Source: Escherichia coli (lineage in GTDB: Bacteria; Pseudomonadota; Gammaproteobacteria; Enterobacterales; Enterobacteriaceae). From it: a stretch of DNA of 64,000 bases. This document shows, piece after piece, positions 25,406 to 25,845 of the stretch (position 1 is the first letter of the stretch; the number at the start of each line of letters is the position of its first letter). Where the stretch lies: assembly GCF_044324875.1 (NCBI RefSeq), contig NZ_CP172185.1, one strand, 5' to 3'. Position numbers and translations under genes: made by a program. The notes below the pieces were generated by a model. That model did no database searches. It was not told the origin of the DNA and saw only the letters and a program-made list of their open reading frames with translations.

Positions 25406-25731
25406 AATGAATCCTTTTTCGATTTATGAGAATAAATACTCATTTAAGAGTGAAAACATTTTGCCTGCAAATGATTATCAGGAAATATAACATTATCGAA
25501 GTATTCAAATTAACAACTATTAAATAATATTAAACATTTTTAACGTAAACATTAAGAATATTCATCTTGTTATCTGTCTGTATTTTAACCAGAATTAAAT
25601 CAGTATTAGATGCCGTATGAATATCTCGAAATGTTGCTGTGTATCACATACAAATCATCACCGCAGGACCATAGTATTTACATAAGGTTTGTCCCCCGGA
25701 GGTAGTCATCGCAGCAATCGAGTAAATTAGC

Positions 25732-25760
25732 TTCACCACGGTATATTGTTTCCGTAGAAT
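25732..25760 (+). promoter_or_regulatory. Candidate sigma-70 promoter for ypfM
   Basis: TTCACC-N17-TAGAAT ending 26 nt upstream of ypfM ATG. Confidence 0.35.
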
Positions 25761-25785
25761 ACCCATAATTATAAGAGAGGTTGTT

Positions 25786-25845
25786 ATGATTGAACGTGAA
25801 CTGGGGAACTGGAAAGACTTTATCGAAGTTATGCTTCGTAAGTAA
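25786..25845 (+). CDS. ypfM: Small protein YpfM (19 aa)
   Basis: ATG 25786 reads MIERELGNWKDFIEVMLRK then stop; AGAGAGG SD 6 nt upstream; two hairpins with a T-run follow; too short for the ORF track. Confidence 0.7.
   Translation: MIERELGNWKDFIEVMLRK

Follow-up and report, generated by a model that had tools for sequence, protein, structure and literature searches.

The 19-codon gene ypfM and the AT-rich control region that it very probably shares with the divergent yffB operon in Escherichia coli

A 64,000-nucleotide (nt) stretch of Escherichia coli DNA (contig NZ_CP172185.1, assembly GCF_044324875.1; hereafter the window) was analysed around positions 25406-25845, where an AT-rich intergenic region separates yffB from the 19-codon open reading frame (ORF) ypfM. 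Exactly 380 bp, with 31% GC, lie between the yffB start (25405, minus strand) and the ypfM ATG, and the minimum over 200 nt (0.23 GC) is the lowest in the window, whose average is 0.54. This agrees with the original prediction, made from the DNA letters alone, which had drawn attention to an AT-rich region of 380 bp. We consider it highly probable that the locus corresponds to the known ypfM gene together with a control region common to the divergent yffB-dapE-ypfN operon. The ypfM gene, its translation, its transcript, a promoter prediction and the H-NS mark of the spacer are already known and annotated. Three minor observations are new: a previously undescribed promoter-like module at 25630-25675, an excess of synonymous conservation in ypfM, and a candidate reassignment of the yffB promoter. 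The features of the locus are the following, beginning with ypfM and its signals and followed by the spacer and the neighbouring genes.

25786-25845, plus strand: ypfM coding sequence (CDS), 19 amino acids, MIERELGNWKDFIEVMLRK followed by the stop codon (translation; RefSeq 'protein YpfM')
25773-25780, plus strand: Shine-Dalgarno sequence AAGAGAGG, 5 nt 5' of the ATG (read from the sequence)
25732-25760, plus strand: proximal sigma-70 promoter P1, TTCACC-17-TAGAAT, with a predicted transcription start site (TSS) near 25767 (promoter scan; PMC3946193)
25630-25649, plus strand: distal motif AATGTTGC-TGTGTA-TCACAT, centred at 25640.5 (cross-species conservation)
25670-25675, plus strand: -10-like hexamer CATAGT, with a predicted distal TSS near 25682 (fixed spacing to the distal motif)
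25824-25838, plus strand: small hairpin CGAAG-UUAUG-CUUCG in the last six ypfM codons, equal to the first helix of Rfam STnc250 (minimum free energy fold)
25825-25944, plus strand: match to Rfam RF01409 (STnc250, Hfq binding RNA), 34.9 bits, E = 3e-5, full model length
25870-25892, both strands: 10-bp hairpin AAGAACCUGC-UGA-GCAGGUUCUU, on the plus strand part of the ypfM 3' untranslated region (3'UTR) (folds of both strands)
25904-25939, both strands: intrinsic terminator acting in both directions, GGCGACA-loop-UGUCGCC, flanked by A- and U-tracts (terminator scan and folds)
25406-25640: AT-rich core of the spacer, 25% GC, covering the yffB leader and the DNA upstream of the promoter of yffB (composition)
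25484-25492, minus strand: extended -10 element TGTTATATT, candidate yffB promoter, predicted TSS near 25477 and leader of ~72 nt
25594-25621, minus strand: literature-predicted yffB promoter TTCATA-16-TTTAAT (PMC3946193, Table 1)
25049-25405, minus strand: yffB CDS (ArsC-family reductase), divergent neighbour of ypfM (ORF list and RefSeq annotation)
23918-25045, minus strand: dapE (ORF list)
25944-29057, minus strand: acrD CDS, convergent with ypfM (ORF list and RefSeq annotation)

In the ORF list, narQ likewise lies on the minus strand, as do dapE, yffB and acrD.

The 701 bp around ypfM were matched in 5,425 of the 5,426 complete E. coli genomes, with the annotation order yffB / ypfM / acrD. 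Their identity to K-12-derived records is 98.9%. The C600 annotation names the 60-nt CDS 'protein YpfM' (WP_001386977.1), and its product is identical to the translation in the window; in K-12 MG1655 ypfM is b4606, located at the corresponding place (2590807-2590866). Subtracting a window coordinate from 2616652 gives the K-12 coordinate, so that the spacer corresponds to 2590867-2591246, the predicted starts of ypfM fall near 2590885 (P1) and 2590970 (P2, both K-12 minus strand), and that of yffB falls at about 2591175 for the extended -10 or about 2591065 for the published promoter prediction (K-12 plus strand). Amino acids, place between yffB and acrD, orientation and published promoter are the same as those of YpfM b4606 (NF033843), and no substantive difference was found here. 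The gene name and the 19-codon ORF had thus been called correctly in the original prediction. Its remark that the ORF is too small for standard ORF callers needs correction: current annotation does not miss it, and the Prokaryotic Genome Annotation Pipeline reports 'protein YpfM' in E. coli genomes. The corresponding NCBIfam entry, NF033843 ('small_YpfM'), is an equivalog model of 19 positions. The profile search was applied to the longer relatives of 20-22 amino acids and gave 49 bits in Pantoea, 32.1 in Yersinia and 28.8 in Hafnia (cut-off 33); a Pfam search with the same longer relatives assigned them to no family.

Translation of ypfM is documented in the literature. The YpfM protein was seen intact by top-down mass spectrometry, with 100% coverage and a formyl-Met N-terminus, and was also detected by data-independent acquisition and parallel reaction monitoring in the same 2025 proteomics study, which mentions a previous detection by Schmidt et al. 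(PMC12529367). The lack of a translation signal and of a discrete transcript had been named as what would count against the gene; these mass spectrometric data and the published Northern data (see below) favour it. YpfM is among the shortest conserved, demonstrably expressed bacterial proteins.

Conservation was analysed in 80 YffB-anchored loci of different species. The ypfM ORF, encoding 19-22 amino acids, was present on the opposite strand upstream of yffB in 62 of the 80. Every carrying genus from Escherichia to Dickeya has a protein of 19 amino acids, and lengths of 20-22 occur in Yersinia, Pantoea and Hafnia; a search within 2 kb did not find the ORF in most Erwinia, Pantoea, Serratia and Photorhabdus of this set. 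There are 49 distinct nucleotide sequences for 20 proteins. Entropy averaged 0.20, 0.20 and 0.64 at codon positions 1, 2 and 3 respectively, and variable sites were found at 15 of the 19 third positions, seven first positions and four second positions, while start, stop and length were kept. This combination of third-position variation with fixed length, start and stop is the mark of purifying selection on the protein, and the comparison shows ypfM to be a real coding gene. Eleven of the 19 residues are invariant (M1, I2, E5, W9, K10, F12, I13, M16, L17, R18 and K19), and positions 4 and 15 are free to vary.

YpfM has a mean hydrophobicity of -0.12 and a net charge of 0. Its helical hydrophobic moment (0.546) was equalled by 3% of shuffled sequences. 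One face of the helix carries the invariant hydrophobic residues, and the variable positions 4, 8 and 15 lie on the polar face. With these values YpfM is too weakly hydrophobic to span a membrane and is predicted to be a soluble amphipathic helix. The invariance of the hydrophobic face and the variability of the polar one suggest that YpfM could act by docking onto a partner protein, a tentative proposal to which we give slightly less than even chances. The conserved hydrophobic face, made up of I2, L6, W9, F12, I13, M16 and L17, offers a handle for work on YpfM.

The promoter TTCACC-N17-TAGAAT and the strong Shine-Dalgarno sequence pointed out in the original prediction are both present at the locus and kept in place across species. 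Shimada et al. (2014) give the same hexamers, TTCACC-17-TAGAAT, as the ypfM promoter (PMC3946193). Among 65 distinct upstream sequences, the P1 -10 hexamer is TAGAAT, TATAAT or TAAAAT in 46, and in 44 its distance to the ATG is 25-26 nt. The -35 hexamer is TTCAC(A/T/C) in most genera, and the stretch between both hexamers varies freely. GAGG of the Shine-Dalgarno sequence is present in 62 of the 65 sequences, and ATAAGAGAGG is almost unchanging across species. Entries for ypfM and yffB were sought in published TSS supplements, and none was found.

The tandem hairpins described downstream of ypfM were also recovered, at 25870-25892 and 25904-25939. The terminator scan returned four terminator-like sites in the region (0.6 expected), and the E. 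coli RNA 25767-25945 folds with -53.3 kcal/mol (z = -4.3) into three hairpins (25824-25838, 25870-25892 and 25904-25939). The terminator at 25904-25939 adjoins the acrD stop codon and provides ypfM with a U6 tail on the plus strand. Of 67 loci, 56 have a ypfM terminator, whose stem takes 23 different sequences that all keep pairing (e.g. GGCGGC/GCCGCC and GCAGCAACC/GGTTGCTGC). By contrast, the scan flagged the hairpin at 25869-25893 on the minus strand only, where the U-rich tail UUGUUGUUUGU comes after it; this hairpin is probably the acrD terminator. Other genera have a hairpin at the place of 25870-25892 with an unrelated sequence. Given this strand asymmetry of the U-tracts, the tandem hairpins are best interpreted as a convergent pair of terminators, one used mainly by ypfM and the other mainly by acrD; as the 25870-25892 hairpin serves mainly acrD, the ypfM and acrD 3'UTRs would overlap. 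Between 25860 and 25941, transcripts reading through each other's hairpin would overlap by ~40-80 nt at their 3' ends, which makes antisense pairing possible. The small hairpin at 25824-25838 keeps at least five of its six predicted pairs in 38 of the 49 distinct sequences. The covariation test on these 49 sequences found one-sided changes only and no two-sided compensatory changes, which leaves this hairpin unproven.

The transcript of ypfM is known from Salmonella as STnc250. Sittka et al. (2008) placed STnc250 at the ypfM ORF, between acrD and yffB, and reported a growth-phase-dependent Northern signal of ~220 nt; the same authors reclassified STnc250 as a small mRNA (PMC2515195). In RNA sequencing of S. 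Typhi, STnc250 was the highest-expressed of the mapped Hfq-bound RNAs (PMC2704369). The RF01409 score of the E. coli RNA (34.9 bits) is under the gathering score of 42, making it an orthologue by position and a formal non-member by score. Orthologues scored 112.9 bits in Salmonella, 77.8-91.6 in Citrobacter, 43.1 in E. albertii and 42.9 in Enterobacter. The low E. coli score is due to the replacement of the middle hairpin by unrelated hairpins among genera. The E. coli ypfM RNA shares with STnc250 the orthologous place, the strand, the full-model match, the first small hairpin and the terminator, but its middle section is 24 nt longer and forms a different, larger hairpin. The reported Hfq binding concerns STnc250 of Salmonella. 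The suggestion that the region could host a small RNA (sRNA) was therefore right in one respect: the ypfM mRNA, mainly its 3' part, is STnc250. No separate sRNA was found in the AT-rich tract, where an Rfam search at E ≤ 1 gave no match and the terminator scan gave no terminator-like site, and this candidate was rejected.

A second promoter-like module lies upstream of P1. The distal motif has the family consensus AATRTTGC-N6-TCACAT; a strict pattern recovered it in 43 of 67 loci, and a looser one in 50 distinct sequences. It is always located 100-118 nt upstream of the ypfM ATG, while the length of the spacer spans 292-1044 bp. The hexamer CATAGT or CATATT follows it at an invariant 21 nt, and the distance from the motif centre to the start of the hexamer is 29.5 nt in all 43 loci. 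In class II promoters the activator site is centred ~41.5 bp upstream of the TSS, 29.5 bp before the -10 hexamer begins, and the spacing observed here has this class II activator-dependent geometry. The motif is asymmetric, and it was compared with consensus sequences. Its right half, TCACA(T), is invariant and resembles CRP sites (consensus TGTGA-N6-TCACA). In the left half TTGC is invariant; it has the TTG of FNR sites (consensus TTGAT-N4-ATCAA) and lacks the CRP G at position 5. Comparison by eye with the consensus sites of MarA/SoxS, Fur, ArcA, PhoP, MntR, OxyR and sigma-54, -E and -32 gave no convincing fit. An RNA starting at this module (P2) would measure ~260 nt in E. coli and ~227 nt in Salmonella, and an RNA starting at P1 ~175 and ~147 nt respectively. 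The Salmonella Northern signal fits the P2 length and not the P1 length. From its position and conservation, the module is probably a distal promoter from which ypfM also starts; it may reveal the inducing signal and is another handle for work on YpfM.

A 22-residue ORF (MNISKCCCVSHTNHHRRTIVFT, 25617-25685, plus strand) runs over the distal motif and was rejected as a gene. It has no Shine-Dalgarno sequence, its start codon is missing in many species, its length ranges from 8 to 82 codons, and its 'conserved codons' never vary at third positions, all of which indicates a DNA motif. It is intact in Escherichia and one Citrobacter, has 18 amino acids in other Citrobacter, and is not retained elsewhere.

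The rest of the spacer has mostly no sequence conservation. In the alignment of 17 genera the spacer is often ~385 bp, with a GC content of 0.30-0.49 throughout, and three blocks are conserved: the region of P1, the Shine-Dalgarno sequence and the ypfM start; the extended -10 of yffB; and the distal module. In genomic SELEX (systematic evolution of ligands by exponential enrichment), the ypfM/yffB spacer (55.80 min) binds RpoD holoenzyme alone and is marked in Table 1 as holding an H-NS site (PMC3946193); this in vitro mark agrees with the earlier idea of a silencer-bound region. The spacer resembles the other type-A spacers with an HNS mark of Shimada et al. (2014) in being AT-rich, in lying between divergent genes, in binding RpoD holoenzyme alone and in its H-NS site. 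It differs from them in its flanking genes, which are conserved core genes, not horizontally acquired.

The two candidate promoters of yffB differ in their conservation. Escherichia, Citrobacter and Salmonella all keep the extended -10 element TGTTATATT. With the end of its hexamer at -105 relative to the yffB ATG, the Salmonella element predicts a TSS at approximately -97/-98, and a Salmonella yffB::gfp fusion built from the TSS begins at -97 (PMC5137417). This match supports the extended -10 as the yffB promoter. The published TTCATA-16-TTTAAT prediction is ranked below it, since the stretch 25594-25621 aligns poorly outside Escherichia. The extended -10 thus appears to be the better supported candidate, judging from conservation and from the Salmonella fusion. 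yffB is the first gene of what an RNA sequencing compendium supplement calls a single operon, yffB-dapE-ypfN. Published Salmonella work describes repression of yffB by the sRNA SdsR and an increase of yffB in a fur mutant.

Taken together, ypfM is a monocistronic gene transcribed from the conserved sigma-70 promoter P1 (predicted TSS near 25767) and probably also from P2 (predicted TSS near 25682). Its strong Shine-Dalgarno sequence drives translation of the 19-residue YpfM, and transcription ends at the bidirectional intrinsic terminator common to convergent acrD. The AT-rich 380 bp are ordinary divergent promoter DNA, made up of the candidate yffB promoter, its ~72-nt leader and the upstream regions of both promoters, and include the in vitro binding sites of RNA polymerase and H-NS. 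Several points weigh against this interpretation or parts of it. By itself, the P1 consensus match is not above chance (1 against 2.4 expected in shuffles), and the TSS positions of P1, P2 and yffB are predictions. P1, although conserved, may be a minor promoter, since the Salmonella band fits P2. A scan for the H-NS nucleation motif TCGATAAATT found two sites with two mismatches in the spacer, with a window-wide count barely above that of shuffles, and the evidence for H-NS binding to the spacer is one in vitro SELEX table. Moreover, where the amino acid is the same as in E. coli, codon identity is 0.83 in ypfM and 0.57 in yffB of the same genomes, in pooled comparisons that are phylogenetically non-independent. 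A plain protein-coding reading does not explain this excess synonymous conservation. Two rare codons are nearly fixed, GGG at Gly7 (43 of 47 sequences) and CTT at Leu17 (37 of 49), and the 5-bp stem completed by CTT doubles as the first helix in the Rfam STnc250 model. These signs of RNA-level constraint are a further handle for work on YpfM.

Such codon conservation, with the fixed rare codons, would also be expected if the ypfM transcript were a dual-function RNA acting both as an Hfq-dependent base-pairing regulator (STnc250) and as the messenger of the 19-residue peptide. The Rfam family of Hfq binding RNAs at the orthologous position points in the same direction, as does a short stable transcript with a U-tailed terminator and a hairpin before it. 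Hfq co-immunoprecipitation in Salmonella adds a 4-fold enrichment (24 versus 6 reads), but this is far under the ~20-27-fold of established sRNAs in the same table, and the STnc250 authors themselves speak of a small mRNA (PMC2515195). The middle hairpin of the 3'UTR and the leader sequence differ between genera, so no conserved seed lies outside the Shine-Dalgarno sequence and the ORF, and the RNA is not known to have a target. The codon conservation may itself reflect translation-initiation constraints, which would span most of a 60-nt ORF. We regard the dual-function reading as unlikely; the Hfq association in Salmonella most likely means that the ypfM mRNA is a target of sRNA control, not a regulator. 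A stronger version, in which the RNA is under nucleotide-level selection as an Hfq-dependent riboregulator and the distal module, with an activator in CRP/FNR-like geometry, is the main promoter, seems similarly improbable; if true, it would make YpfM production dependent on a particular physiological signal. Known dual-function RNAs such as SgrS/SgrT and AzuCR have the same short monocistronic layout, were likewise recovered with Hfq, and encode a peptide of less than 50 amino acids. The layout is also that of yneM/mgtS (STnc570), a short monocistronic RNA with its own promoter and intrinsic terminator, Hfq co-immunoprecipitation and a peptide under the same length. MgtS and AzuC are membrane-associated with known partners, whereas YpfM is predicted to be a soluble amphipathic helix.

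Two other explanations concern the AT-rich tract and the ORF. The tract could be foreign or degenerate DNA silenced by H-NS, or could hide an independent small RNA or ORF, as might be suspected from the lowest GC of the window, the H-NS mark in SELEX, several internal ORFs of 10-40 codons, and a polymorphism of 25406-25785 that is sufficient in E. coli for use as a host-source biomarker (PMC11267920). However, the divergent yffB/ypfM arrangement is kept across Enterobacteriaceae and beyond, with a spacer that is AT-rich in all of them, which argues against foreign DNA. The permissive Rfam search and the terminator scan found nothing in the tract, as stated above. None of the 13 ORFs of at least 10 codons between 25406 and 25785 is kept in the relatives beyond Escherichia and some Citrobacter. 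The conserved blocks are promoter-like, with hexamers kept and the stretches between them free. We consider this explanation very unlikely. That the ypfM ORF is a chance or purely regulatory frame, such as a leader peptide, whose product has no function of its own is extremely unlikely, even though it has just 19 codons and no function or phenotype is reported in the literature surveyed. Downstream of ypfM the plus strand has the terminator and then convergent acrD, and with no plus-strand gene to follow, ypfM is not a leader peptide. The invariant residues, the mostly third-position changes, and an abundance sufficient for detection of the intact peptide (PMC12529367) also oppose this idea. 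The reading of the locus as ypfM and a divergent control region is therefore preferred.

Some further observations concern the spacer and related loci. The ypfM/yffB intergenic region is a MarA chromatin immunoprecipitation peak in Salmonella (PMC10268841) and carries a mutation in laboratory strains (PMC7858067). E. coli F374 (NZ_OY754371.1, locus positions 2057-2945) has an IS1A insertion with a deletion, by which yffB has lost its 5' part and the spacer is missing as far as approximately window position 25691; ypfM and its proximal promoter are intact in this strain. The flanks of related loci contain unrelated Rfam elements: a fluoride riboswitch and a cspA thermoregulator in Dickeya oryzae (locus positions 194-255 and 723-1088), and a naRNA4 (REP-like) element in E. 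albertii (locus positions 3766-3846). The stretch 40601-40800, after a 759-residue ORF that ends at 40547, ranks second in AT content within the window (GC 0.28).

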